From a virus: DNA of 51,168 nucleotides. The stretch is from the IMG/VR virus record IMGVR_UViG_3300005831_000022, one strand, 5' to 3'. The position numbers were made by a program, and so were the translations under genes. Under the pieces are notes generated by a model that had not been told where the DNA came from, ran no database searches, and worked only from the letters and a program-made list of their open reading frames with translations. Of the stretch, positions 5,371 through 51,168 are shown in pieces (the stretch's first letter is position 1; each line of letters starts with the position of its first letter).

Positions 5371-5724
5371 ATGAAAAGAGAAATAACACAACAACAAAGA
5401 ACAGGCGTATTAAGTAGATACAGAAGTAAATACGTTGAAATATCAAAAGCGAGTATCACGCCTACAAGAAACATGGTTATTAGTTCGTCAGAAGATATTA
5501 CAGGAAAGAAAAGCTACATTTTGTCACAGCAAATCACAGTACAAGAGGATGGAAGAACAACACAAGTTTTCTTGAAAGGTTCAGGAATTATCGTTGATGA
5601 CTTAAAAGGATTATACAATATAAGGGATGCTGTTAATTTCGCTGTTAACAAAGCAGAGAAAGAAAAACCTACATTCCAGTATACAGATGTAAATGATGAT
5701 TCCATTGAGTGGGATGATAATTAA
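5371..5724 (+). CDS. Hypothetical protein
   Basis: ATG after GAGGAA. C-terminus is ...DDSIEWDDN. Confidence 0.55.
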   Translation: MKREITQQQRTGVLSRYRSKYVEISKASITPTRNMVISSSEDITGKKSYILSQQITVQEDGRTTQVFLKGSGIIVDDLKGLYNIRDAVNFAVNKAEKEKPTFQYTDVNDDSIEWDDN

Positions 5725-5732
5725 TAAAAATG

Positions 5733-5761
5733 TTGACACATGTGATATTGTGTGCTATACT
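5733..5761 (+). promoter_or_regulatory. Sigma-70/sigma-A type promoter
   Basis: TTGACA (5733..5738), 17 nt spacer, TATACT (5756..5761). Confidence 0.8.
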
Positions 5762-5800
5762 ATAACAGTGAGATAAACACGATATCACAAATCTTCAACA

Positions 5801-5812
5801 TTTCAGTTGAAA
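5801..5812 (+). promoter_or_regulatory. Mini-hairpin box TTTC-AGTT-GAAA
   Basis: Identical to the boxes at 601 and 25825. Lies in the leader of the 5848 CDS. Confidence 0.6.
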
Positions 5813-8428: not shown

Positions 8429-8440
8429 GTTCAGTTGAAC
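8429..8440 (+). promoter_or_regulatory. Mini-hairpin box GTTC-AGTT-GAAC
   Basis: Perfect arms, 8 nt upstream of AAGGAGG. Confidence 0.55.
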
Positions 8441-8459: not shown

Positions 8460-9332
8460 ATGGAAGACACTAAGAAACAAACAAAGGGAAAGAGTAACAC
8501 GCTAATCTGTGGAACAATGTTGTGTACATTAATGTTAGTAACATCAAATACATTAATAACAAACGCACATACACAAGAGGTAAACCCAAACATACCAATT
8601 GTAAAGACTACAGTACAACCAACACAAGGAACAATATGTTATCAGGAACATGGTGACAATTGCATGTGTGATAAGTTCGTGGATAATACAATCCCTGTTG
8701 TAACTGTTAAACCCACACACACAGCGACAGCAACAGCAACTAAAGAAGCCTTGACGGATGTGTTAACTGGCAAAACAACAGTTTACAAAGTAGGAAACAC
8801 AATAGTTACACCACAACCAACAACCAAGCCAACACTAAAAGAAGAACAAGCCAATGCAACAACTATACAAATAAACAAAGCAATGGCATCAAGCTACAGT
8901 AAAGGGAAACCTTACAACATCCCTTTAAGTGCAGACCTACAAAGACACATAATTAACAAATGTAAAAAGTACGGTATCAGTCCAAACATTATCATAGGGA
9001 TGATTGATACAGAATCCACCTTTGACCACAATGTAATGGGTGATTACGGTCATAGCTATGGATTAATGCAAATACAAAAGCGTTACCATTACGACACAAT
9101 GAAAAGATTAGGATGCTATAACCTTTTAAACTCATACGATAATGTAAACGTAGGTATTGATATATTCGCACACCTATATTACAAATATGGTAACTACCAT
9201 AAAGCCTTGATGGCTTATAATGGTGGGGAGGGATACGCAGACTATAGAATCAAAAGGGGTATATTGCGTTCTAAGTATAGTAGAAAAGTAATGAACAAAG
9301 CATACCATTATAAAGCCATTCGCAAATATTAA
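8460..9332 (+). CDS. Secreted lytic transglycosylase (SLT domain)
   Basis: N-terminal signal/TM segment LICGTMLCTLMLVTSNTLI and a Thr/Pro-rich linker. SLT motifs are IDTESTF, YGLMQI and AYNGG. Confidence 0.8.
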   Translation: MEDTKKQTKGKSNTLICGTMLCTLMLVTSNTLITNAHTQEVNPNIPIVKTTVQPTQGTICYQEHGDNCMCDKFVDNTIPVVTVKPTHTATATATKEALTDVLTGKTTVYKVGNTIVTPQPTTKPTLKEEQANATTIQINKAMASSYSKGKPYNIPLSADLQRHIINKCKKYGISPNIIIGMIDTESTFDHNVMGDYGHSYGLMQIQKRYHYDTMKRLGCYNLLNSYDNVNVGIDIFAHLYYKYGNYHKALMAYNGGEGYADYRIKRGILRSKYSRKVMNKAYHYKAIRKY

Positions 9333-9347
9333 TTAAATACACACACA

Positions 9348-9443
9348 AAAGCCGATACAAGCCTTGTAGCCACTTAAATACATTATTTTAGAATAATATA
9401 CCTTAAGATAAAAAGTGACGTTTACAAGCCCTGTATCGGCTTT
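9348..9443 (+). terminator. Long imperfect rod hairpin (terminator or small structured RNA)
   Basis: AAAGCCGATACA (9348..9359) pairs with TGTATCGGCTTT (9432..9443). Inner helices are CTTGTA/TACAAG and CACTT/AAGTG. T-rich sequence follows. Confidence 0.5.
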
Positions 9444-9486
9444 ATAATGCCATAAAATAAATTTCATATTTTTTACAAAAAAAGTA

Positions 9487-9515
9487 TTGACAACCAATTC
9501 AACACATGCTATACT
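9487..9515 (+). promoter_or_regulatory. Sigma-70/sigma-A type promoter (extended -10)
   Basis: TTGACA (9487..9492), 17 nt spacer, TGcTATACT (-10 at 9510..9515). Confidence 0.85.
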
Positions 9516-9553
9516 ATCAAAGTACCAAGTAGTTGATTGGTAACAACAAAATA

Positions 9554-9565
9554 TTTCAGTAGAGA
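9554..9565 (+). promoter_or_regulatory. Mini-hairpin box TTTC-AGTA-GAGA
   Basis: The arms pair only if one U-G wobble is allowed. Directly followed by GAGAGGAAA. Confidence 0.5.
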
Positions 9566-9580
9566 GAGGAAACAAAGAAA

Positions 9581-9958
9581 ATGAGTATTATTTACAAATT
9601 GTCGACAGACAAAAGGTGTGAACTACAGGCGATACAAGTAAACGCCAATAACATCTATGACAAAATGAGCGAAGCAATAGGAAACACAATGGAACACGTA
9701 CACGTTAAAGGACTTGATGAAAACAACATTACAATGTTTTGTGATGATGAATTTCTTTTGAACAAAAAACAAGAGTTAGAAAACGTGTCAATTTACCTGT
9801 TTTACAAGAACCTACCTATATTAGGTAATGTTATCTTTGCAGGATTCGACAAGGGAACAGGTGATAGCTTGCCACTTACAAGCGAACAAATCACCATCAT
9901 ACAGAAACTAATCAAGAAGACTACAATTGCAGGCATTGGCATTGCATACGTAGAGTAA
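9581..9958 (+). CDS. Hypothetical protein (DUF3846-like?)
   Basis: C-terminal pattern ILGNVIFAGFDKGTGDSLPLTSEQ recalls DUF3846 proteins. This is recalled from memory only. Confidence 0.35.
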   Translation: MSIIYKLSTDKRCELQAIQVNANNIYDKMSEAIGNTMEHVHVKGLDENNITMFCDDEFLLNKKQELENVSIYLFYKNLPILGNVIFAGFDKGTGDSLPLTSEQITIIQKLIKKTTIAGIGIAYVE

Positions 9959-10037
9959 CAACAAAGTATATACGCAGGGTGTAAAAGCCCTGTTGTATGT
10001 ACAAACAAAAAGAAATAAAAAAAGTTTCAAAAAAGTG

Positions 10038-10066
10038 TTGACAAGTGTTTCAATACATGTTACACT
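10038..10066 (+). promoter_or_regulatory. Sigma-70/sigma-A type promoter (extended -10)
   Basis: AAAAAGTG-TTGACA (10038..10043), 17 nt spacer, TGtTACACT (-10 at 10061..10066). Confidence 0.8.
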
Positions 10067-10093
10067 GTAAAAGTAGCAGATAGCTACAAAATA

Positions 10094-10105
10094 ACTCGAT
10101 AGAGT
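10094..10105 (+). promoter_or_regulatory. Mini-hairpin box ACTC-GATA-GAGT
   Basis: Perfect arms, directly followed by AGGAG. Confidence 0.55.
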
Positions 10106-10118
10106 AGGAGAGAAAACC

Positions 10119-10385
10119 ATGAAAACAATTTACGACGTTAAAACAATATTAAAGAGAGCACACAACATAAAGAAACAAGCAGGATGCACAATGTCAGAAG
10201 CTCTAAAGTTTTCATGGGCTATCGAGAAAAAAGAAATCGAAATCAGAACGTACAACGCACGTTTTGACGGTGAAGTAGTAACTTGGTCTATATGGACGGG
10301 TTACGGTAAAGTAAGAGCATATTACACATGTTCATGGCGTTCAAAATACGCAGACGCTAAAAAGACAAACTTTGTAAGCATGTAA
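10119..10385 (+). CDS. Hypothetical protein (88 aa)
   Basis: Good RBS. No motif recognised. Confidence 0.6.
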   Translation: MKTIYDVKTILKRAHNIKKQAGCTMSEALKFSWAIEKKEIEIRTYNARFDGEVVTWSIWTGYGKVRAYYTCSWRSKYADAKKTNFVSM

Positions 10386-10424
10386 AGGATAGGTTAGCAT
10401 AAACATCAAGATGGAGGGGATAAC

Positions 10425-10583
10425 ATGGTATCATGTAAAGTCAGAAACACACCTAAAATGAAAAAGGTGTTAAAGAAAGTGTTGTCAAGAAAAAGAAGAC
10501 ATCACACAAAGAAAGTGAACGATATGTCATTCATAGGTTCACGAAAAGAAAATAACAAGTATGTAAGCAATTACGACTTGTAA
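10425..10583 (+). CDS. Small basic protein (52 aa), tentative
   Basis: ATG after GGAGGGG. Lys/Arg-rich. Below the ORF-track cutoff. Confidence 0.35.
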   Translation: MVSCKVRNTPKMKKVLKKVLSRKRRHHTKKVNDMSFIGSRKENNKYVSNYDL

Positions 10584-10605
10584 CATAATAAAGGAGGTGT
10601 TAACA

Positions 10606-10746
10606 ATGCTATGTAATAGATGTGGTGGTGCGTGCTGGGAAGAAAGCAACATGTGTTTCGAATGTGGATATCCAGCAGGTGCAGAATGGGAAGAACCTAC
10701 ACAAGAAGAAGCACAGAAAACGACACAAGAAGCAATAAACATGTAA
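10606..10746 (+). CDS. Small zinc-ribbon protein (46 aa)
   Basis: ATG 7 nt after AAGGAGGTG. CNRCGG...CFECGY followed by an acidic tail. Confidence 0.5.
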   Translation: MLCNRCGGACWEESNMCFECGYPAGAEWEEPTQEEAQKTTQEAINM

Positions 10747-10793
10747 CTTAAAACATAAATTAAGCACAGTAGTGCAACAAGGAGGAAATAAAA

Positions 10794-11252
10794 ATGGAAA
10801 GATTTAAAACAAAGGTACAAATAATAAAAATCGGGGATATAATGAACACGATTGACGTCGTGTGTAACAATAGATTTTGTTTTACTTACGACCAATGTGC
10901 ACGTGATGGTACAGACGAATGTCTGTATTGTGCACACGGTGACAGTCACGGTAATTGTGGTATACTTGATGTGTCAGAGTGTGTTATAACTAAGGTAAAA
11001 AAACGTAACCTAAACGATGGTTACAAAAAGATACGTTTTGCGAAAGAATCAAAACACCCAAAAGTTAGACTAGGATTATTGAAAATCTTTCAAGAGGTGT
11101 ATTCTGAAAGTATGGAATGTAATGTTGTTGTGTATCAAATCGACGAACCAAATAATCGTATTTGGGCACAAAGAAAAAGTTGTAAACCGTCGAAGTGCTT
11201 TTTCGTAAAGCATTTAGATATAAACGACATATCAGAAAAAAGAGAGGTGTAG
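10794..11252 (+). CDS. Cys-rich protein
   Basis: RBS AAGGAGG. About 10 Cys in the first 65 aa (CNNRFC...C...CLYCAHGDSHGNCG...C). Confidence 0.6.
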   Translation: MERFKTKVQIIKIGDIMNTIDVVCNNRFCFTYDQCARDGTDECLYCAHGDSHGNCGILDVSECVITKVKKRNLNDGYKKIRFAKESKHPKVRLGLLKIFQEVYSESMECNVVVYQIDEPNNRIWAQRKSCKPSKCFFVKHLDINDISEKREV

Positions 11253-11255
11253 CAA

Positions 11256-11762
11256 ATGGAAAATAAATATGTTTTTGAATTTACAGATAACGCAGAGAAA
11301 AACGAACACGCACAAAAATGCTTAGATTTTGTTGTAGAGTGTGTTAAAGATTACTCATACGACAAAAGAGAAGCGAACCTAATAATGCGTGGTTACCTTA
11401 TCGCACTATTAGGTAACGAAATATCAGCACGTTCTATGGAAGCAAACACCTACGCAAAAGAACGTATCAAAAACGCATACGACATGCGTGTTAAGTATAG
11501 GTATGGCGTTAGTGATATAACGTTTAAAAATTGTACTGTGTCACGTATGCAGGACGCCTATGTCCTTGTAGGTAGAGAGGGAAACAAAGATATAAGGGTA
11601 ATGCAACCTTTTAACACTCCAATTGGAGATTACACAGACAGGATTGTGTACATCATATCACCCAATAAAAATGATATGTATGCACACATGGTAAGCGTTC
11701 TCGGACTAACGGAAGAAAAAGCACAAGACATTATGCTTTTTAACTTAGAACACAGACTTTAA
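11256..11762 (+). CDS. Hypothetical protein
   Basis: RBS AGAGAGG. No motif recognised. Confidence 0.6.
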   Translation: MENKYVFEFTDNAEKNEHAQKCLDFVVECVKDYSYDKREANLIMRGYLIALLGNEISARSMEANTYAKERIKNAYDMRVKYRYGVSDITFKNCTVSRMQDAYVLVGREGNKDIRVMQPFNTPIGDYTDRIVYIISPNKNDMYAHMVSVLGLTEEKAQDIMLFNLEHRL

Positions 11763-11781
11763 TATTTTTTAAAAAAAAGTG

Positions 11782-11810
11782 TTGACACGCTTACAAACAT
11801 GTGTTAACAT
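11782..11810 (+). promoter_or_regulatory. Sigma-70/sigma-A type promoter (extended -10)
   Basis: AAAAAAGTG-TTGACA (11782..11787), 17 nt spacer, TGtTAACAT (-10 at 11805..11810). Confidence 0.75.
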
Positions 11811-11816
11811 ATAGAA

Positions 11817-12032
11817 GTAACAAACAGTTAGTAAACAGCAAGACACGAAACACTTGCGAATCTCTAAACCGTTACCACTGTAAAGCGTAACCGTCCGACA
11901 CATAGGAAGTGATTGTGTGTGCTGTATGTGAAATAGTGAAACACATGAGCCAAACGCACTCGCAAGGAATGAGCGTTAAAATCCACGCACTTCTCACACA
12001 GGGGTGCGTAATGTTAAAAACATAAAAAAATA
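11817..12032 (+). ncRNA. Long structured 5' leader / candidate cis-regulatory or small RNA
   Basis: About 245 nt between the predicted +1 and ATG 12061, with no plausible ORF and locally higher GC. Helices: CTTGCGA (11853..11859)/TCGCAAG (11960..11966), GTTAC/GTAAC, CACAT/ATGTG, ACGCAC (11985..11990)/GTGCGT (12004..12009), ATGTT/AACAT. Confidence 0.45.
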
Positions 12033-12044
12033 GCACAGTGGTGC
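12033..12044 (+). promoter_or_regulatory. Mini-hairpin box GCAC-AGTG-GTGC
   Basis: Perfect arms, 3 nt upstream of AAAGAGG. Confidence 0.5.
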
Positions 12045-12060
12045 ACGAAAGAGGTAAAAA

Positions 12061-12888
12061 ATGATTACATACAAAAATATTAAATTCAATGAGAAAGTTT
12101 CAAAGAAAAGAGAAACATTATTTAAAATAGGCATGAGTGTAATAGAGTGTAAGAGAGTTATGGAAGAAAAAGAAACAAATTTTATTTTAGACATATCAGA
12201 TACAATTGATTCGGTAAATAATACTCACATAATGTCAAAGGCAATAAAAACGTCTATGATGATTATTGAAGAATTAGGACTATATAGATACAGTAACAAA
12301 ATGTTACAAAGTGTTAATGAATTTTTGAGCAATAAAACTATAAAAGAGGTATTTACAGTTGTTTTACAGGCTTATGAATTTTTCGCAATTCAAAATGATA
12401 CAGCAAAAGAAAAGATACTACGTTTTGAAAGTTTTGAAAAATTCATTGACAGTATATTTAAATTTTCTGTGTATGAGTTAAGAACTATTGTAACACTAGA
12501 AGAAATTATATCAAGTGTAAGCTATGTATGTGAGCGTGTGTACACACAAGTTCAAACAGTTGTAAATTTAACACCACATGATATTGTAATTCTAAATGAA
12601 GATGGTACAGAAAAGATTGTGTACAAAAGTGAGGGTATCGCTAGAGTATCAGCAACACAAACTTTATCTTACCAATTCACAGACCAAAACTGTTTACAAC
12701 ATGACGTATATAAACCGTCATACGGTGAAGTATCAGGATTGCCAGCACAACAAGACGGATTCATGTACATAGTATCAGGGATGGTAAAAAGTGCCCTACC
12801 TGATAGAAATGATTGCATATGTCCAAATGCACTGTTAATGGTACGTGAAAACGGTGTACCAAAAGGCACACAAGCATTTCAGGAATAA
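12061..12888 (+). CDS. Hypothetical two-domain protein
   Basis: Helical N-terminal half. The beta-rich C-terminal part (LTPHDIVIL...GIARVS...GLP...YIVSGMV...R.D...P...VRENG.P.G) resembles an uncharacterised phage/plasmid domain that I cannot name. Confidence 0.55.
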   Translation: MITYKNIKFNEKVSKKRETLFKIGMSVIECKRVMEEKETNFILDISDTIDSVNNTHIMSKAIKTSMMIIEELGLYRYSNKMLQSVNEFLSNKTIKEVFTVVLQAYEFFAIQNDTAKEKILRFESFEKFIDSIFKFSVYELRTIVTLEEIISSVSYVCERVYTQVQTVVNLTPHDIVILNEDGTEKIVYKSEGIARVSATQTLSYQFTDQNCLQHDVYKPSYGEVSGLPAQQDGFMYIVSGMVKSALPDRNDCICPNALLMVRENGVPKGTQAFQE

Positions 12889-12912
12889 CAAAACAAATAA
12901 CTAAGTATAGTA

Positions 12913-12937
12913 AGGTGGTGCGTAACAAACACCACCT
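12913..12937 (+). other. Stem-loop (8 bp) followed by an A-rich tract
   Basis: AGGTGGTG (12913..12920) pairs with CACCACCT (12930..12937). Confidence 0.5.
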
Positions 12938-12980
12938 AAAAACAAAATAAAACATAATAAGAAAGAATGAGGGTTCACAC

Positions 12981-13352
12981 ATGGAAACAACATTCAAAAT
13001 GGTATTACCTAGAACAATGAGAGGTAACAGCTGTATAGACTTAAATGAAAGCAATATACAAGCCGTGTATAGAAGAAAGAATCAAGAAATCAAGAAACTA
13101 GGAAGCGATAGGATAGCACCATTAACAGGTCTTATTATCCAAGTGGACAACAAGCCATACAGATTGATTAAGATTCAACGTGAGTATATTGGGACGCACC
13201 CATTTACAAACATTCAGCAAGAGACAGCAGACAAAAATATCATATATTGGGGCATCATGGCACAATGTAACGATATAAGCGATTTTGTACTATACTACCA
13301 AAAGGAGGATGCGACACCATGCCTTTTGACTTCAAGAAACAACGAATCGTAA
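12981..13352 (+). CDS. Hypothetical protein
   Basis: RBS GAGGG upstream of the ATG. Confidence 0.55.
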   Translation: METTFKMVLPRTMRGNSCIDLNESNIQAVYRRKNQEIKKLGSDRIAPLTGLIIQVDNKPYRLIKIQREYIGTHPFTNIQQETADKNIIYWGIMAQCNDISDFVLYYQKEDATPCLLTSRNNES

Positions 13353-13786
13353 CAGATGAAGAATATCAAAACTTCAACCAGTTAACCATTCAACAAATTG
13401 AAAGAATCAGAGAAGTATATAAAGAAGAGTCATCAATCGACCGTACAGCAGAAATTACAGGTCATTGTAGAAATACAATAAATAAGTACGTTAAAGATAT
13501 AAGTGTCCTTAAACGCAACAGCAGGGACTACGAGGGCAACGAAGTATTAAGGATATGCCCTAACACTGGAAAGATAGAAAGACGCTATAAAACGCAATTA
13601 CAAGCCTCAAAAGATAACTTCATTTCCCCTGACACGTTAAACAAGTGCATCAAGGGGCACACAGCAACAGCAGGAGGAAAAGTTTGGGTTTTGGAAAGTG
13701 AATATGACCAAAACAAAGATTATACCGTAAAAAGCAAATTTCACTTTTCAGACATTGCAAAACTCAATAGAATATTATTCATGTAA
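13319..13786 (+). CDS. HTH DNA-binding protein; candidate late-gene regulator
   Basis: HTH-like DRTAEITGHCRNTINKYVKD. C-terminal YKTQLQASKDNFIS...TAGGKVW resembles NUMOD/IENR-type DNA-binding modules. It sits about 1 kb upstream of terS, where ArpU/RinA-type activators usually lie. Confidence 0.45.
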   Translation: MPFDFKKQRIVTDEEYQNFNQLTIQQIERIREVYKEESSIDRTAEITGHCRNTINKYVKDISVLKRNSRDYEGNEVLRICPNTGKIERRYKTQLQASKDNFISPDTLNKCIKGHTATAGGKVWVLESEYDQNKDYTVKSKFHFSDIAKLNRILFM

Positions 13787-13800
13787 ATATAAAATAAAAG

Positions 13801-13841
13801 CAAATAAAAGGCAAAAAAGTGTTGACAATGCCTTTTATTTG
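13801..13841 (+). terminator. 13-bp hairpin terminator whose loop carries the next promoter's -35
   Basis: CAAATAAAAGGCA (13801..13813) pairs with TGCCTTTTATTTG (13829..13841). The loop is AAAAAGTGTTGACAA. Confidence 0.65.
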
Positions 13842-13850
13842 TTATATAAT
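13822..13850 (+). promoter_or_regulatory. Sigma-70/sigma-A type promoter
   Basis: TTGACA (13822..13827), 17 nt spacer, TATAAT (13845..13850). Confidence 0.85.
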
Positions 13851-13884
13851 AAGAGAGTAGTAAGTAATTACTTGCTAACATCAA

Positions 13885-13896
13885 TGTCAGTAGACA
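13885..13896 (+). promoter_or_regulatory. Mini-hairpin box TGTC-AGTA-GACA
   Basis: Perfect arms, directly followed by AAGGAG. Confidence 0.6.
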
Positions 13897-13911
13897 AAGG
13901 AGACAGAAAAA

Positions 13912-14172
13912 ATGATAACATTAGAAATGGTAAAAGAAAATATGCAATCAATGGTTGCATGTACATTCACAAAAGAAGAATTGGAAGATGTGTGTATAAT
14001 ATCTTTCCAAGATTACGAAGAAAACGACACAAGCGAAATAATATTTTCGCAACTAGGAAGAAACACATTTACAGCATACGTAAACAGCGAAGATGGAAAT
14101 GGTTACATCATAGAAACATCAAGCCATGTTGTAAATGGTGAAAATGTGTTTTTAGTTGAAGAGATAAGGTAA
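13912..14172 (+). CDS. Hypothetical acidic protein (86 aa)
   Basis: Good RBS. The overlapping 13755..14141 ORF is rejected. Confidence 0.6.
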   Translation: MITLEMVKENMQSMVACTFTKEELEDVCIISFQDYEENDTSEIIFSQLGRNTFTAYVNSEDGNGYIIETSSHVVNGENVFLVEEIR

Positions 14173-14180
14173 ACAAAGTT

Positions 14181-14252
14181 TCGCACTCTATAACAGGTAT
14201 AGTAAACGTTTATAACCAACAAACGTGTGTGGTTCAACTCCACTAGTGCGAA
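14181..14252 (+). ncRNA. tRNA-like element (non-canonical cloverleaf, no encoded CCA)
   Basis: Perfect 7-bp acceptor stem, TCGCACT (14181..14187) with AGTGCGA (14245..14251). Canonical T-arm GTGG-TTCAACT-CCAC. Total length 72 nt. The D region is a 5-bp/5-nt hairpin (CTATA-ACAGG-TATAG). The anticodon stem CGTTT/AAACG closes a 9-nt loop ATAACCAAC, and the variable region is only 1-3 nt. Confidence 0.45.
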
Positions 14253-14255
14253 TTA

Positions 14256-14327
14256 ACAGGTTACAAGCACAACAAATAATAAACATGCGATTATCCCCTC
14301 GATTACTGTATGTAGCTTGTAACCTGT
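14256..14327 (+). other. Clamp hairpin (13-bp perfect stem, 46-nt loop)
   Basis: ACAGGTTACAAGC (14256..14268) pairs with GCTTGTAACCTGT (14315..14327). Confidence 0.6.
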
Positions 14328-14331
14328 ATTA

Positions 14332-14343
14332 TGTCAATAGACA
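14332..14343 (+). promoter_or_regulatory. Mini-hairpin box TGTC-AATA-GACA
   Basis: Perfect arms, directly followed by AAGGAGGG. Confidence 0.55.
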
Positions 14344-14356
14344 AAGGAGGGAATCA

Positions 14357-14503
14357 ATGTTAGATAAAATAAATGACTTCTTTAGTAAGTCGCAAACAAC
14401 AGAACAAGACATGAAAAAGCGTGTAAGCACAAAAGAGGCTACAAGACACATGTCAAAGATTCAACGTGTAGTAATAGACAACACAAAACATACTAAAAAG
14501 TAA
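14357..14503 (+). CDS. Small hypothetical protein (48 aa)
   Basis: ATG 7 nt after AAGGAGGG. The track ORF 14225..14503 is trimmed because its 5' part overlaps the tRNA-like element and hairpin. Confidence 0.5.
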   Translation: MLDKINDFFSKSQTTEQDMKKRVSTKEATRHMSKIQRVVIDNTKHTKK

Positions 14504-14520
14504 AAGAGGTGATACAGACA

Positions 14521-14724
14521 ATGTTGTCACTAGTAAGCAGAATAAGACTAAAAATAAAGATATTCAAAAACAGGTTACGCTTAAGGTTGTTACACAACGA
14601 GATAACATCATTAGAACTAATATTTAATGATAAGCGTAAGCAGTTGACAGAAACACAGAAACGCACGTTAAGAAAACGTGCTAGCGAGATATTCGCAGAG
14701 ATAGAAACAATAACAACACTGTAA
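14521..14724 (+). CDS. Small basic coiled-coil protein (67 aa)
   Basis: ATG about 8 nt after AAGAGGTG. Confidence 0.45.
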   Translation: MLSLVSRIRLKIKIFKNRLRLRLLHNEITSLELIFNDKRKQLTETQKRTLRKRASEIFAEIETITTL

Positions 14725-14889
14725 ACACCATGTAACACAGTAATACAATTTCATAGTGTGCACTGACAAGGTTCATTTGTTTGAACACCTTGAAACAGCA
14801 AACAATAAAAGGATAACGTGTTACCAATGCATGTATATCCTTATTGCTGTATTAAGAGGTAAAATGAAAACATTGGAGGATAAGACAAA

Positions 14890-15687
14890 ATGAAGAAACA
14901 TTCACCAGCACACACAACAACAGGTGGTATTGTAGCCGATAGATTTCTATGTAATGACGGTGAATTACTACTAAGTGCGTATTCACGAGACGGAATGACA
15001 ATGAAAGAGATAGCCGAAAAGATAGGCGTTAACGTGTCCACGCTGTACTCATGGATGACTGACTTCCCTAACATCAAGAAAGCGTTACAAACAGGAAGAG
15101 ACATAGTTGATTACAAAGTAGAAAACGCATTGTTAAAACGTGCACTAGGTTACACGACAAAAGAAAGTAAGATTACAATGGAGTTAAAAGACGGATGCAT
15201 GACACAAACAAAAGTGGAAACAATCCAAAAAGAAGTTGACCCAAATGTAACAGCTATCGTTGTATGGTTAAACAACCGTAAACCTGATACATGGAAACGT
15301 AACCGAGACAACGTACTAGAAACAACAGACAAAGATAGTAACATAACAGTTAACATTTTCCATGATGGTAAGAAGAAAGATTTAAGTCAATCAACAGAAG
15401 ACGATACACCAATGGATGATACAACAGCAAGCGTAACAACACAACAAAGCACAACAGATATTACAGTAGTAAATAATCAAGAAAGTGCAAGCGATGAAAT
15501 ACGCAAACAACACAATAAACATTTAGAAGAAGAATACAACAAAAACAATGTAAACACAAAAGTGCAAACAGACCACACTTTAACTCACACAGTTGAATTA
15601 ACATGGGATGAAGATGAATGGGAAGAAACAACAACACCTGTTACCACGCAATCAGACGATTGGGATGATGAAGATGAATGGGGGTAA
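14890..15687 (+). CDS. terS: Terminase small subunit
   Basis: HTH MTMKEIAEKIGVNVSTLYSWM plus ...VVWLNNRKPDTWKRNRD, immediately upstream of terL. Long acidic Trp-rich C-terminal extension. Confidence 0.7.
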   Translation: MKKHSPAHTTTGGIVADRFLCNDGELLLSAYSRDGMTMKEIAEKIGVNVSTLYSWMTDFPNIKKALQTGRDIVDYKVENALLKRALGYTTKESKITMELKDGCMTQTKVETIQKEVDPNVTAIVVWLNNRKPDTWKRNRDNVLETTDKDSNITVNIFHDGKKKDLSQSTEDDTPMDDTTASVTTQQSTTDITVVNNQESASDEIRKQHNKHLEEEYNKNNVNTKVQTDHTLTHTVELTWDEDEWEETTTPVTTQSDDWDDEDEWG

Positions 15688-15693
15688 CAACAC

Positions 15694-17025
15694 ATGTTAG
15701 TAAACAAAGAAATTAATGAAGCGTTTAAAGATTATATCTTTGATTGGGATTACAAAACATACTTATCTCTAGGTGGTTACGGTTCGTCTAAATCATACCA
15801 CACAGCGTTGAAACTAATACTAAAACTGTTTGCAGAGAAACGAAAAGCGTTAGTAGTTAGAGAAGTGTATGATACACTAAAGGAATCAACGTTTGACCTT
15901 ATATTCGAAATACTAGATAGTATGGATATGTTAGAAGAAGAGAGTAACAAGGGTAGAACAACAAAGGTGCGTTTCAGAGTGTCACCATTACAGTTCGTGT
16001 TTCCTAATGGCTCACGTATCATATTTAAAGGAATGGACAGTCCTAGTAAAGTAAAGAGTATTAACAATGTATCTATAGTATGGATAGAAGAAGCAAGTGA
16101 ATTAAAGTATGCAGGTTACAAAGAGTTATTAGGGCGTGTACGTTGTTACGGTATGTCACTACATTTCATATTAACAACTAATCCTGTAGGTATGGAAACA
16201 TGGGTCTATACACACTTCTTTAAAAGTGTAAACGAACTAGGTGAAGAAACAATTGTACTAGATGATAAAGACTTATACAACAAGAAAGTAATTGTATGTA
16301 ACAACACATATTACCATCATAGTACAGTGGATGATAACAAGTTTATAAACCCTGAATACATACAAACACTTGACGAACTAAGAACATATGATGATACCTT
16401 ATGGAGGATAGCAAGGTGGGGACGTTTCGGTGTTAACGGTTTACGTGTGTTACCACAATTCACAGTTGCAAAGAACCCAACACAGTTTGTTAATGCTATA
16501 CGTAAGTTACCTATTAGTTCACATTATTTCGGTATGGATTTTGGATTTGAAACATCATACAATGCAGTGATATCATGTGCTGTAGATATACAAACAAAGA
16601 CATTATATATATACGATGAAATATACATTAATAACATAACAGATGATGTAATGAGTGAACATCCTAAGATGGTGAAACATAAGATAATGGAACACGAACT
16701 AGTAGCAGATAACGAAGACCCAAAAGCTATATCGTTCTATAGAAGATGTGGTTACAAGATGCGTGGTTGTCGTAACAAGTTTGCAGGTTCACGCTTATCT
16801 AATACAAGAAAGTTAAAACGTTTCAAACGTATTGTGTGTAGTCCTACATGTGTAAACGTAATAAGAGAATTAAAGAGTTTAACATATAAGATAAACAGGC
16901 AAGGTAAACTAATCTATGATGAATTCAATATTGACCCTCATACATTCAGTGCCTTGTGGTATGCATTAGATAACGTAACAGTGGCAGACGTAAAACATGA
17001 GAAGAGAAACAATAAAAGAGGATGA
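15694..17025 (+). CDS. terL: Terminase large subunit (PBSX/Terminase_3-like)
   Basis: Walker A-like GGYGSSKS, Walker B VWIEEASE, C-terminal nuclease region. Size and position fit. Confidence 0.9.
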   Translation: MLVNKEINEAFKDYIFDWDYKTYLSLGGYGSSKSYHTALKLILKLFAEKRKALVVREVYDTLKESTFDLIFEILDSMDMLEEESNKGRTTKVRFRVSPLQFVFPNGSRIIFKGMDSPSKVKSINNVSIVWIEEASELKYAGYKELLGRVRCYGMSLHFILTTNPVGMETWVYTHFFKSVNELGEETIVLDDKDLYNKKVIVCNNTYYHHSTVDDNKFINPEYIQTLDELRTYDDTLWRIARWGRFGVNGLRVLPQFTVAKNPTQFVNAIRKLPISSHYFGMDFGFETSYNAVISCAVDIQTKTLYIYDEIYINNITDDVMSEHPKMVKHKIMEHELVADNEDPKAISFYRRCGYKMRGCRNKFAGSRLSNTRKLKRFKRIVCSPTCVNVIRELKSLTYKINRQGKLIYDEFNIDPHTFSALWYALDNVTVADVKHEKRNNKRG

Positions 17026-24828: not shown

Positions 24829-25758
24829 ATGAACATATTACGATTGGCAACAGCTGACGCAATTAGAAAACGAGTAACAGTACAACAACAAACAAAAATA
24901 AAAGAAGTATACACAACAGCACTAACAAGTACAAGAAAAGAAATAGAAAAGTTAAAGTTTAATAATAGCGTTACTAGTGCCATTCGTACACGTCAGTTGT
25001 ATTTACTAGAACAACAACTAACAAAAGCTTTAACTACAGCAAACGGAGAACTAGAAAATATTATAAAAAGTAATATGGGTATAGTCGTTAATGGTGCTGT
25101 AGATGAAGCGAATAAGTTTCTCACACATGTACGTTTTAAAGGACAGGTAAATTACTCATACGTAAATGAACAAGTTGTAAAAAGCATTACAACAGGTCAA
25201 GTATATGATACTGGGTGGAGTCTTTCAAAACGTATATGGGGAAACAACGAAAAGCAATTGCAGGATATACACAAAATAATTGCAATAGGTACAGCACAAA
25301 ATAAGGGTTCTTACGATATAGCCAAAGACCTAGAAAGATATGTAAACCCAAAAGCAAGGAAAGATTGGAATTGGTCAAAAGTTTACCCGAACACAAACAA
25401 GGTTATAGATTACAACGCTCAAAGACTAGCAAGGACACTAGTATCTCATGCATACCAGCAAAGCACACAGGTAGCCCATAATGATAACCCTTTTGTAACA
25501 GGCTATATATGGTATAGTGCTTTAATTCATGGGCGTACGTGCGAAATCTGTACGAATCGGAACGAGGTTGTATATTCAAAGAATGAAGTACCACTTGACC
25601 ACCCAAACGGATTATGTACAATAGCACCTGTATTAAGTAAATCACTAAAAGAGATATCAAGCGATGTAGCCGATTGGTACAATGGAAACAGTAACGAAGA
25701 GCTTGACACATGGAGCGAAAAACTACAAGAACAGAAACAAGATAAATTTTACAAATAA
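24829..25758 (+). CDS. Minor head / head morphogenesis protein (Mu F / SPP1 gp7 family)
   Basis: C-terminal HGRTCEICTNRN...PLDHPNGLCTIAPV matches the family's signature. Confidence 0.8.
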   Translation: MNILRLATADAIRKRVTVQQQTKIKEVYTTALTSTRKEIEKLKFNNSVTSAIRTRQLYLLEQQLTKALTTANGELENIIKSNMGIVVNGAVDEANKFLTHVRFKGQVNYSYVNEQVVKSITTGQVYDTGWSLSKRIWGNNEKQLQDIHKIIAIGTAQNKGSYDIAKDLERYVNPKARKDWNWSKVYPNTNKVIDYNAQRLARTLVSHAYQQSTQVAHNDNPFVTGYIWYSALIHGRTCEICTNRNEVVYSKNEVPLDHPNGLCTIAPVLSKSLKEISSDVADWYNGNSNEELDTWSEKLQEQKQDKFYK

Positions 25759-25771
25759 TTTCATAAAAGTG

Positions 25772-25800
25772 TTGACACACATATTAATATGTGATATTAT
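25772..25800 (+). promoter_or_regulatory. Sigma-70/sigma-A type promoter (extended -10) inside the head module
   Basis: AAAAGTG-TTGACA (25772..25777), 17 nt spacer, TGaTATTAT (-10 at 25795..25800). Confidence 0.8.
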
Positions 25801-25824
25801 ATAAGAGTACCAAACAGGTACACA

Positions 25825-25836
25825 TTTCAGTTGAAA
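25825..25836 (+). promoter_or_regulatory. Mini-hairpin box TTTC-AGTT-GAAA
   Basis: Perfect arms upstream of GAGGAAAA and ATG 25853. Confidence 0.6.
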
Positions 25837-39386: not shown

Positions 39387-39671
39387 ATGAAAAAATGTCT
39401 ATGGGTATCATCCCAACCAATCACAAGGGAACAAAAGTCACAAATAATGGAGAGGTTACAATGTAATTTCGTTTGTGACTTATGCGACAGGGAAATTGAT
39501 TCTGTCGATGTTCTGTTTGAAATGGCAGAACAAAGCGATACAATTATTGTAGATATGGCAACAGCCCCGAAAGAGGTTGTAAGCTGGATAGATACAATAA
39601 TAAACCTTGCACCTATTAAGGGTAAACAGATAATAATCTTACGTGATAGACGTAAGAACAACAGAAGATAA
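39387..39671 (+). CDS. Hypothetical protein (94 aa)
   Basis: ATG after AAGAGGAAAAG. The track start at 39324 would overlap the promoter. Confidence 0.55.
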   Translation: MKKCLWVSSQPITREQKSQIMERLQCNFVCDLCDREIDSVDVLFEMAEQSDTIIVDMATAPKEVVSWIDTIINLAPIKGKQIIILRDRRKNNRR

Positions 39672-39687
39672 GAAAAGGAGTAAACAA

Positions 39688-39918
39688 ATGGCGTTACATC
39701 AAGAAAATAAATGGTGTTTCGTCATTTGTATTCACAGGAAGATTCTGCGTTTTGCCTGTTGGATTGACAACACAGACGCATTTGTGAAGTACCTACATGA
39801 ACAAGGTTATGAGTTCATAAAAGTATTTGAGCCTGTACGTACAGATGACGGACTAGACCACCTTACAGACGAACAAATGAAAGAAATAATAAAATTAAAG
39901 AAAGAGTGCATAGCATAA
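39688..39918 (+). CDS. Hypothetical protein (76 aa)
   Basis: ATG 8 nt after AAAGGAG. Confidence 0.55.
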   Translation: MALHQENKWCFVICIHRKILRFACWIDNTDAFVKYLHEQGYEFIKVFEPVRTDDGLDHLTDEQMKEIIKLKKECIA

Positions 39919-48821: not shown

Positions 48822-49457
48822 ATGGGAACTATAGAACGGTATAATAAAATAGTAATAGGCATTGACCAATCCTTGAAGTGTACAGGTATAAGCATTGTAG
48901 CAGATGGCAAGATAAAGAACGTAGTGTCAGAATCATACAATGAGTGTAAAACAGATACAGATAAACGGTCAACACTATATAAACGTGTATACACAGCTAT
49001 ACATACAGCAAAACAAAGAAGTGATAACGTAATAGTCATAATGGAGCGTATACGTTTAAAGTCAGCAGGATTCATTGATATTAATGTTATCAAGGCTATG
49101 GCAGGATTGTGTTGTACAATAACAGACTGTTGTGTTAATAATGGTATACAAGCCTACACAGTTGATACAGCATCATGGAAAGCACAAGTTGTGGGTTCTG
49201 CTAAGAAACAGGATAACAGTTATGGTATAGACCCTAAGAAGTGGCTGACAATGAAATATCTTGTAAGCAATGGTTACGAACAGTATATACTACAGGAAGT
49301 ATCACCACGCAAGAAGACAAGTATAGTTAAGGTTGTACATAATAGTAATGGTACAGTCACACGTTATACTTACAATGATAATAAAGCTGACAGTATGTGT
49401 ATAGGATTATATGGCTTTATATCGCCTGATTTACAGAAGTTACACCCCGAGAAGTAG
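48822..49457 (+). CDS. RuvC-like Holliday junction resolvase
   Basis: VIGIDQSLKCTGISIV (first catalytic Asp), VIMERIRLKS (Glu), YNDNKADSMCIG (Asp). Confidence 0.6.
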   Translation: MGTIERYNKIVIGIDQSLKCTGISIVADGKIKNVVSESYNECKTDTDKRSTLYKRVYTAIHTAKQRSDNVIVIMERIRLKSAGFIDINVIKAMAGLCCTITDCCVNNGIQAYTVDTASWKAQVVGSAKKQDNSYGIDPKKWLTMKYLVSNGYEQYILQEVSPRKKTSIVKVVHNSNGTVTRYTYNDNKADSMCIGLYGFISPDLQKLHPEK

Positions 49458-49525
49458 AATAATATACCTAGATATATAGAATGGCTTTAAGGGGCATATA
49501 TGAGTATCACAAGGCTATATACAAT

Positions 49526-49606
49526 AAGCACCTACTAGTAATGATGTGTACACAACAGTTAATATGACATGTGTATATACTTGTTACTAATAGGTGCTTT
49601 TATTAT
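49526..49606 (+). terminator. Large-loop hairpin terminator closing the replication operon
   Basis: AAGCACCTACTAGTAA (49526..49541) pairs with TTACTAATAGGTGCTT (49584..49599) at 15/16 positions, then TTATTAT. Confidence 0.65.
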
Positions 49607-49682
49607 GTACTAATGTAATATGACACATAACAACACGTAATATACTACTAGTAAACAAGTATAACGTAACGTAATCAAGTAT

Positions 49683-49718
49683 GTGTTGTGTGTTAACTGT
49701 TGTGACGTGTTGTGTGTT
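49683..49718. repeat. Direct 12-mer repeat GTGTTGTGTGTT x2 (24-nt period)
   Basis: Copies at 49683..49694 and 49707..49718, plus a degenerate third copy following. Confidence 0.7.
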
Positions 49719-50086
49719 CATGTGTTACGTTGTATACCTGTTGTCAGATGTGACCTTATATATTTACTTTTATTGTAATAAATCCACACGTAATTATATG
49801 TATTTGTATATAGTAATACATGTGTTTCTATGTAAAAATGACGCATGTGAGCACCTTTAAAAGTATGTATTTTCACAAGGGCGTACTTGTAAAAGCATGT
49901 AGTTTTACCGTTTTCCACTTTTTTGTCAAGCCCTTTTTGACGATTTAATATTATTTAACATTTATCATATGTGACCACATGTAAACCCTATTGTTTCCTA
50001 CATTTGTTCGTTAATAAGTATGTAACAATACGCTATGTAACCACTGTTAACACTGTGTTGTCACTGTGTGCACACAAAAAAAGTTG

Positions 50087-50115
50087 TTGACAAAAAAAAC
50101 TTAAAGTGTTATCAT
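50087..50115 (+). promoter_or_regulatory. Sigma-70/sigma-A type promoter (extended -10)
   Basis: AAAAAAGTTG-TTGACA (50087..50092), 17 nt spacer, TGtTATCAT (-10 at 50110..50115). Confidence 0.8.
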
Positions 50116-50181
50116 ATTTTCAATACGTGGGGAACATGGGGTCAGGGGTGTGAGAGTGCTCCAGTGCGTTTGTGCGTGTAC

Positions 50182-50543: not shown

Positions 50544-51168
50544 GTGAACAAACCTAAGTTACTATGTATGAACATGCACGACTACACGAAACAAGAACAA
50601 ACAAAAGTTACAACATTAAATTATTTTAATAACATCAAGAACATGACCGAACATTACAATGTTATAATTGTACTATTTAACAGTTTACAACACAGCGAAA
50701 TTACAAAGTACGCACCATCACTATGTAACAGTGAAGATGTAACAATAGTTCACATGTATGAACTAAAATTACTCGAAATGAAACAATTCATAAGTAAGTG
50801 TCACCTAGTAAGTTGTATCTACATGCTGGGGTTCAACGTTGAATCAGATTTACACACAAGGCAAGGACTCACAGTGTACACATGCAACGGTAAAGAGTTA
50901 CGTTATGTCTTTTATAACTTTCTGCTTGATGCATACAGACGCAGACCAAACATTGTAATTTACTTAACAGAAAAAGATGTGGAAGAAGCGTTAAAAACTT
51001 TGAGTGTATTCTCTCTCATAGAAAACAAGAAAGTGAAAGTTCAAACCGACTTTGTTTCTGTAATACGCACAGGCATAGGAAGTACACGACAAAACAAAAA
51101 CTTACTAGAATTTATTAATAAAAAACTATCAGGACAAATAGACGGTTCTAAACCATTTGTAAAAAAAG
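50544..51168 (+). CDS. Hypothetical protein, 5' part of the junction-spanning CDS (continues at 121..548)
   Basis: GTG 8 nt after AGAAAGAGG. The frame is open to the window end and in phase with 120..548 through the 120-nt overlap. Confidence 0.6.
   Translation, partial: MNKPKLLCMNMHDYTKQEQTKVTTLNYFNNIKNMTEHYNVIIVLFNSLQHSEITKYAPSLCNSEDVTIVHMYELKLLEMKQFISKCHLVSCIYMLGFNVESDLHTRQGLTVYTCNGKELRYVFYNFLLDAYRRRPNIVIYLTEKDVEEALKTLSVFSLIENKKVKVQTDFVSVIRTGIGSTRQNKNLLEFINKKLSGQIDGSKPFVKK
51049..51168. repeat. Terminal direct repeat, identical to 1..120
   Basis: 120/120 nt identical by direct comparison. Confidence 0.95.

Follow-up and report, generated by a model that had tools for sequence, protein, structure and literature searches.

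A long, GC-rich leader upstream of a predicted Crn4b-family ring nuclease gene in a phage genome

The locus and its genomic setting

The window, that is, the whole stretch of 51,168 nucleotides analysed here (IMG/VR record IMGVR_UViG_3300005831_000022), carries an identical 120-nt direct repeat at its two ends (bases 1-120 and 51049-51168) and is a complete phage genome of ~51,048 bp, circularly closed or terminally redundant. Its GC content is ~35% and its long ORFs lie without exception on the + strand; ARAGORN detected no tRNA or tmRNA gene. The large terminase (TerL; 15694-17025) is 50-60% identical to the terminases of Clostridium and Bacillus phages and, to the same degree, to those of many ~50-kb viral contigs from gut and rumen. 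The region of interest lies 3.7 kb upstream of the terminase gene within a cluster of small accessory genes, where a promoter at 11782 and a leader of ~243 nt (~11817 to 12060) follow the gene for a 168-aa protein and precede that for a 275-aa protein (12061..12888, + strand). From the 168-aa gene through the leader to the N-terminal half of the 275-aa gene, this neighbourhood is a mosaic of singleton sequence. That it might represent a phage attachment site (attP) or a host-derived segment was considered and rejected, since the early-region proteins scanned include no integrase, the genes lie on one strand, and genome contigs gave no match.

A promoter family and an unusually long leader

The promoter (11782..11810, + strand) is of the sigma-A type and scores 10/12. 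It comprises TTGACA (11782-87) and TAACAT (11805-10) separated by a spacer of 17 nt, with the TG present in a TGTG -16 element (11800-03), in agreement with the strong extended -10 promoter that had been read here from the letters alone. It belongs to an in-genome family of ~nine near-identical promoters, all of which have AAAAGTGTTGACA and an upstream A-tract, the other members being at 555, 1536, 5733, 9487, 10038, 13822, 25772 and 50087. In the present copy the A/T-rich tract ATATTTTTTAAAAAAAAGTG (11763..11781, + strand) abuts the -35 box; it is common to the promoter family, falls into the direct-repeat families D1, D3 and D4, and resembles an UP element. The family regions (545-592, 1533-1572, 5721-5769, 9454-9535, 10026-10075, 11749-11830, 13812-13859, 25739-25820 and 50084-50123) have a common layout, in which the A-tract is followed by GTGTTGACA, 17 nt, TRTG, the -10 box and then AGUA with a small hairpin. 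The stems of this hairpin vary among the copies with pairing kept (UAAC/GUUA, UACC/GGUA, UAGC/GCUA and UACCAA/UUGGUA), and the element may serve as a 5'-end stabiliser or as the site of a regulator. At the 11782 promoter it takes the form UAAC-AAACA-GUUA (11818..11830, + strand), a hairpin seen both in the sequence of the family and in the minimum free energy (MFE) structure, and it sits 1-2 nt past the inferred start site (~11816-17); its ensemble probability is only ~0.3 in the full-length leader.

The leaders behind the sibling promoters run from an AGUA start through the small hairpin to a TTTCAGTWGA motif and then the ribosome binding site (RBS). This motif occurs at 601-610, 1594-1603, 5801-5810, 8429-8438, 9554-9563, 13885-13894 and 25825-25834, and its placement is consistent, just 5' of the RBS in genes behind family promoters; its total count, with one mismatch allowed, is not above chance.

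The 11782 leader consists of the standard 5' module (promoter and hairpin), a unique insert of ~200 nt and the standard 3' RBS module. The GAAAGAGGTAAAA RBS context that forms the 3' module of the phage's short leaders is retained, and gene 5848 has exactly the same RBS context, CGAAAGAGGTAAAA. The insert has no paralogue elsewhere in the genome, and neither a CRISPR-repeat mimic nor internal repeats were found in the leader. At ~243 nt, close to the ~245 nt of ORF-free sequence first proposed, this leader compares with 33-79 nt for those of the other eight promoters detected in the window. The locally raised GC content that had been remarked upon is also borne out, the core (11832-12035) having 42.2% GC, which corresponds to the 97th percentile of 200-nt windows and tops all non-coding gaps of at least 100 nt (27-36%). 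Length and GC content are the robust anomalies of the leader; its structural signal is only suggestive.

The description of the leader as ORF-free likewise stands. Stop codons occur in every one of the three + frames of 11763-12060, and the longest + strand ORF of the leader stretch is a GTG-initiated frame of 38 aa (11909..12025, alternative start at 11915), which is probably not coding. With a codon score of -0.09 it falls below 100% of true-gene chunks, and its GC3 of 0.46 compares with a gene mean of 0.31, poor codon statistics for which it was rejected as a gene. A tblastx comparison of the leader with 160 loci around TerL relatives revealed no remnant similarity, and a pseudogene or decayed ORF in the leader was rejected for want of such a signal.

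The downstream gene and its transcription unit

The sequence-only reading had left the gene behind the leader without assignable function; a function can now be proposed for its C-terminal domain (~12553-12885). An exhaustive HMMER search retrieved relatives for this domain only (residues ~165-275), as a large family with 1673 representatives. Against the PDB, the family profile matches Crn4b (9r7b) at E 1.7e-20 and Crn4a (9sma) at 6e-16, the matches to Crn4b, Crn4a and Crn4 ranging to 3e-14, and the 275-aa protein as a single sequence matches Crn4b 9r7b at E 0.0018. The domain is modelled by AlphaFold (AF2) with pLDDT 85-98, and Foldseek against the PDB returns 9r7b with a probability of 1.0 and a target TM-score of 0.73, all seven significant matches being Crn4 chains. 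In the family alignment N169, H173, R249 and D251 are invariant and T171 nearly so, forming NLTPH and P-x-R-x-D motifs, which can be seen in a second alignment as well. Crn4a has conserved catalytic or binding residues at T13, H15 and R112 (PMC12830947), the counterparts of which in the 275-aa protein are the T and H of NLTPH and the R of P-x-R-x-D. On profile, predicted fold and residues, the domain is assigned to the Crn4b family of cyclic-oligoadenylate ring nucleases, and the 275-aa protein is a probable anti-type-III-CRISPR or anti-CBASS enzyme.

Cyclic oligoadenylate is the signal that ring nucleases degrade, and the Crn4b homologues of phages and plasmids are considered likely anti-CRISPRs, some of them with N-terminal extensions (PMC12830947). 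The extensions reported for phage orthologues of Crn4b (PDB 9r7b) are of 60-80 aa (PMC12830947), whereas the N-terminal part here covers ~165 aa, lacks homologues and is predicted, at low confidence, to be helical. The gene assignment is the firmer result of this analysis, and the product is a candidate anti-CRISPR with an unusually long, unique N-terminal extension.

Two genes downstream in the same predicted operon lies the gene for a 155-aa protein (13319-13786). This protein matches HTH_38 at E 0.017, below the cut-off, and the PHROG 'HTH DNA binding protein' at E 0.0018, and its sole homologue has a faint NUMOD1 match. These weak similarities make the protein a candidate for regulating the unit, and the only HTH candidate in the operon; it matched no known Aca family.

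Predicted folding of the leader

Positions 11817-12063 were folded with RNAfold and scored against dinucleotide shuffles. The + strand gives -63.1 kcal/mol with z = -3.13 and a centroid almost the same as the MFE structure, whereas the minus strand of the leader gives z = -0.35 and a diffuse ensemble. The dominant predicted feature, absent from the helices listed in the sequence-only reading, is a long-range closing helix on the + strand, present in both the MFE and the centroid structures. Its 5' strand (11860..11881) consists of an anti-Shine-Dalgarno (anti-SD) segment AUCUCU (11860-65) and CGUUACCACUGU (11870-81), and its 3' strand (12035..12055) of ACAGUGGUGCACG (12035-47) and the Shine-Dalgarno (SD) sequence AGAGGU (12050-55). 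The 18 bp of the helix fall into segments of 6+3+9, separated by a 4x2 internal loop and a 1-nt bulge; pair probabilities range from 0.86 to 1.0 and the duplex energy is -21.6 kcal/mol. In the favoured predicted structure the SD is itself paired, with the anti-SD, at a probability of 0.86-0.99. Opening the stretch from the SD to the AUG would cost 3.9 kcal/mol, compared with 0.7-2.5 in seven sibling leaders; this is the highest value of the eight family leaders, but a moderate one.

The closing helix shuts a multi-hairpin domain of ~195 nt, of which the enclosed part (11882..12034, + strand) is GC-rich, unique in sequence and predicted to form hairpins including 11921-11950, 11985-12009 and 12011-12023. 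The second of these had been described as a 6-bp stem and lengthens to 10 bp, followed by a tract that is A-rich, not U-rich. The mini-hairpin and RBS at the end of the leader are as first read, the former at 12011-12023 with a probability of 0.6-0.9 and the latter as AGAGGT at 12050-55. Just 5' of the closing helix a hairpin GCAAG-(10 nt)-CUUGC (11838..11857, + strand) is predicted with pair probabilities of 0.99-1.0. A proposed 7-bp closure between 11853-59 and 11960-66 fares less well, for the segments are complementary but pair with an ensemble probability of ~0, because the local hairpin 11838-57 (probability ~1.0) captures CUUGC. Alternative pairings can be read from the sequence: CUUGC at 11853 could pair with GCAAG at either 11839 or 11962, and GUUAC with GUAAC at 11872/11887.

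Set against the rest of the genome, the thermodynamic signal of the leader is ordinary. The mean z of 121 evenly spaced 247-nt genome windows is -0.92 and 9.9% of them reach z <= -3.0; with G and C content regressed out, the leader is 92nd of 2037 windows. The closing duplex is matched in stability by 1 in 5096 pairs of the same geometry, or 0.3% under best-of-seven spans, but once spans of 60-260 nt are allowed, the genome contains at least 30 long-range duplexes of equal stability, most of them within coding sequence. The SD has an unpaired probability of 0.19, the 8th lowest of 53 genes, and its sequestration is moderate rather than extreme. The early description of a structured leader is upheld in so far as the + strand is predicted to be more structured than the minus strand (z -3.1 vs -0.35), and qualified in that ~10% of genome windows do equally well and the helices it stressed are not the dominant ones.

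Searches for relatives and known RNA families

The leader DNA has no match in INPHARED by megablast or blastn, and none of its exact 24-28-mers turned up in searches of metagenome, genome and viral collections. From IMG/VR and metagenomes, 160 loci were drawn that surround relatives of TerL (60% identity at best); in nhmmer, blastn and tblastx searches of these loci the promoter alone was matched, and they have only TerS and TerL in common with this phage. The promoter part is likewise the sole portion of the region that matches related phages and contig L164, where the same promoter type and hairpin design recur. Among 5.8 billion clusters, neither the 168-aa nor the 275-aa flanking protein has a full-length relative, and by protein-guided synteny these two and the 155-aa neighbour are singletons or close to it. 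When a covariance model built from the leader sequence alone (R2) was searched against 167 loci, the matches were limited to AT-rich hairpins of 56 nt downstream of TerL, which were rejected as homologues. With no homologue of the leader in the collections searched, covariation cannot support a fold or a function, and, with a single sequence to go on, any functional claim can carry only limited confidence.

Rfam 15 returned 0 matches at the gathering threshold over the whole window, and at E<=10 the interval 11600-12300 gave three minus-strand noise matches only, of 14-15 bits. Even at E<=10, that interval gave no match to the T-box family RF00230, and direct reading finds GGGGUGCGUAAUG without the GGNACCGCG part of the T-box consensus, in keeping with the initial opinion that a GGGTG segment is only superficially T-box-like. 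No terminator-like site was found on the + strand in 9000-15000, and hence none in the leader; transcription attenuation is therefore excluded and any control would have to act on translation or stability. The models rejected on these grounds are a transcription-attenuation leader or riboswitch, there being no intrinsic terminator within the leader, and a T-box riboswitch, given that RF00230 is unreported, the consensus incomplete and a terminator lacking. The suggestion that the leader might be a riboswitch accordingly gained nothing from the Rfam check, which returned no family, nor from the T-box and terminator searches.

Parallels in related phages and in known systems

The closest Crn4b homologue (P0002) is encoded on L164, a 113-kb contig with the same promoter family including an AGUACC-N5-GGUA hairpin. 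The leader there is ~515 nt long and ORF-poor, and just upstream of the RBS it contains a domain of ~190 nt between 39-nt inverted arms (2779-2817/2933-2971), with a closing helix of ~31 bp in the analogous place. There is no sequence similarity between the two leaders, and the L164 fold is unremarkable (z -0.6 to -1.65). L164:2335-3001 carries two tandem copies of the promoter type, ~3 kb upstream is devoid of any ORF >86 aa and the downstream gene has a weak ArdA match, which suggests an anti-defence island. Six other contexts of Crn4b homologues have short upstream gaps, L164 alone having a long one, and long leaders were on this account rejected as a general feature of crn4b genes.

Upstream of a 171-aa gene, related phages possess a conserved non-coding RNA (ncRNA) of ~270 nt that has both a family promoter and an intrinsic terminator of its own (L157:4064-4340, L078:4580-4856, L156:2075-2353, L068:2199-2475, L064:3357-3635, L071:4858-5128, L063:2386-2662, L074:4574-4847, L049:4882-5150 and L155:5008-5282; partial at L142:4930-5130). 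Its consensus structure has 53 pairs; 98.7% of cells are paired, compared with 29-53% in slid controls, and changes on both sides are seen in 5 pairs. The RNA contains two copies of UGGUAGCC, for which GCCUACC could be an alternative partner. It matches no Rfam family, is absent from the window and is, judging from these alignments, probably an undescribed phage ncRNA family. The leader is like this RNA in its promoter family, in its neighbourhood upstream of the terminase and in a long-range helix around hairpins; the RNA differs in having its own terminator and a conserved sequence. Membership of the leader in this family was rejected, the best overlap of the model built from 10 phages (R1) being 11907-11946 at 4.3 bits and E 5.8.

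In RNA thermometers and translational riboswitch platforms the SD is paired with an upstream anti-SD. The predicted ground state of the present leader is alike in this respect, but its anti-SD lies ~190 nt upstream, the helix closes a whole domain and opening would take only ~3.9 kcal/mol; neither an aptamer family nor a temperature-sensitive motif could be recognised in the leader. Phage early mRNAs also carry RNase III sites, as in the T7 R sites, the lambda N leader and Bacillus phage SP82. The likeness here is an irregular helix of ~20 bp in an early-transcript leader, adjoining the RBS, whereas the leader helix, its 18 bp broken by an internal loop and a bulge, encloses 150 nt and is no simple hairpin. 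In acr-aca operons, translation is controlled through structured 5' UTR motifs, to which the HTH regulators Aca1 and Aca2 bind (PMC13551039). Those leaders have in common with this one a strong early promoter, a structured leader by the RBS of an anti-CRISPR-type gene and proposed translational control. The Aca motifs, however, are one or two short, conserved hairpins within ~100 nt that show covariation across hundreds of operons (PMC13551039), while the leader of the window is 243 nt long, unique and not a member of the Aca motif families.

Possible roles of the leader

The reading that we tentatively prefer is that the leader acts in cis, controlling the amount or timing of ring-nuclease translation or the stability of the mRNA. 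Transcription from the strong family promoter would produce a 5' untranslated leader of ~243 nt ahead of a first gene encoding the Crn4b-type ring nuclease; the insert of ~200 nt would fold into the ~195-nt multi-hairpin domain, whose closing helix holds the SD and would be the likely effector. Its effect could be a simple damping of initiation, the helix could be opened or cleaved as an RNase III-type substrate, or a phage regulator could bind the leader as in the Aca-controlled anti-CRISPR leaders. We infer the formation of this fold in vivo, and any regulation that follows from it, from the predicted structure. Cis-acting control is favoured by the length and GC content of the leader, its strand-specific fold, the stability of the closing helix and the cost of opening the SD, as well as by the Crn4b-like product, the precedents in anti-CRISPR 5' UTRs (PMC13551039) and the parallel in L164. 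It is weakened by the singleton status of the leader, its ordinary z and rank of 92/2037, the presence of at least 30 comparable duplexes and the moderate sequestration of the SD, and also by the short upstream regions of other Crn4b genes, the dissimilarity of the L164 leader and an HTH candidate that is only weak. Should the leader regulate the gene, it would exemplify the control of a viral ring nuclease at the RNA level, and the control of anti-CRISPR operons by structured 5' UTRs (PMC13551039) would extend to the type III and cyclic oligoadenylate (cOA) countermeasures of Firmicute gut phages. The leader itself is a single-sequence prediction, and the ring-nuclease gene is a concrete anti-CRISPR candidate behind a strong early-type promoter.

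The main rival, somewhat less probable in our view but a real possibility, is that the ~200 nt are a non-functional spacer, that is, a recombination scar or a decayed gene or foreign DNA left between standard modules, in which case the predicted fold would be what any sequence of such composition gives. This would fit with the ~10% of arbitrary windows that fold as well relative to shuffles, with the at least 30 comparable long-range duplexes that arise by chance, with a neighbourhood that is wholly singleton mosaic sequence and with leader ends that are generic family modules. On the other hand, a GC content of 42%, above the other gaps and 97% of windows, is unexpected for decaying AT-rich phage sequence, no remnant similarity emerged by tblastx, an inert 200 nt between a strong promoter and its gene is rare in compact phage genomes, and the fold is strand-asymmetric.

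It is rather unlikely that the domain is released as a stable, trans-acting small RNA of ~170-200 nt, either as a discrete transcript or through cutting of the stalk by RNase III, a cleavage that would free the RBS. The ends of the domain do form the 18-bp closing helix, the structured ~270-nt RNA behind the same promoter type in related phages indicates that this phage group has ncRNA genes, and L164 has its ~31-bp closing helix in the analogous place. However, no terminator follows the domain, a helix of 18 bp that is broken by a bulge and an internal loop is borderline for RNase III, whose processing stalks have ~20 bp or more, the genome offers no antisense target >14 nt, and the ncRNA model of the relatives scores only 4.3 bits on the leader.

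Much less credible is a small protein gene of 36-38 aa (GTG at 11909 or 11915, ending at 12025). The ORF is present, its peptide contains CxxC and, by direct reading, AGGAAG stands 5 nt before the GTG at 11915; against these features, its codon score lies under those of all true-gene chunks, its GC3 departs from the gene mean (0.46 vs 0.31), it has no tblastx homologue and its start region is buried in predicted helices.

Slightly less probable again is a ligand-sensing riboswitch in which binding of a metabolite or signal would open the SD helix. The SD does lie within the helix closing a multi-branch domain, alternative pairings are present in the sequence and the regulated enzyme would degrade a small-molecule signal (PMC12830947), but there is no Rfam family, no T-box consensus and no terminator, the collections searched show no conservation whereas aptamers are typically widespread, other crn4b genes have no long leaders, and a literature search turned up no riboswitch for cyclic oligoadenylates. 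Least probable of all is the specific version in which the leader would sense a cyclic oligoadenylate (cA3, cA4) or another infection cue, so that the ring nuclease would be made only while type III CRISPR or CBASS signalling was under way; it is compatible with an SD in a domain-closing helix, with an enzyme that would degrade cOA and with the lack of a match to known aptamers, the element being a singleton, and if true it would constitute a new riboswitch class controlling an anti-defence gene.

Other structured regions of the genome

The most stable composition-adjusted folds of the genome (z -3 to -4.3) are at 49376-49775 and 39401-39750 on the + strand and at 9201-9600 on the minus strand; 49458-50067 is a non-coding gap of 610 nt close to the genome junction. 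Inside the 3' part of the 168-aa ORF, the minus strand of 11465-11775 has a predicted fold of -80.2 kcal/mol (z = -5.7), which includes a 19-bp hairpin (~11640-11690) and an 11-bp hairpin (~11717-11745), and a terminator-like site is found on the minus strand at 11489-11473. This fold could correspond to an antisense RNA or to DNA palindromes. Just past the stop codon of the ring-nuclease gene, 12911-12937 contains an 8-bp hairpin, AGGUGGUG-(9 nt)-CACCACCU, followed by a tract that is A-rich and not U-rich; this hairpin has GGTGCGTAA in common with the leader hairpin at 12002-12010.
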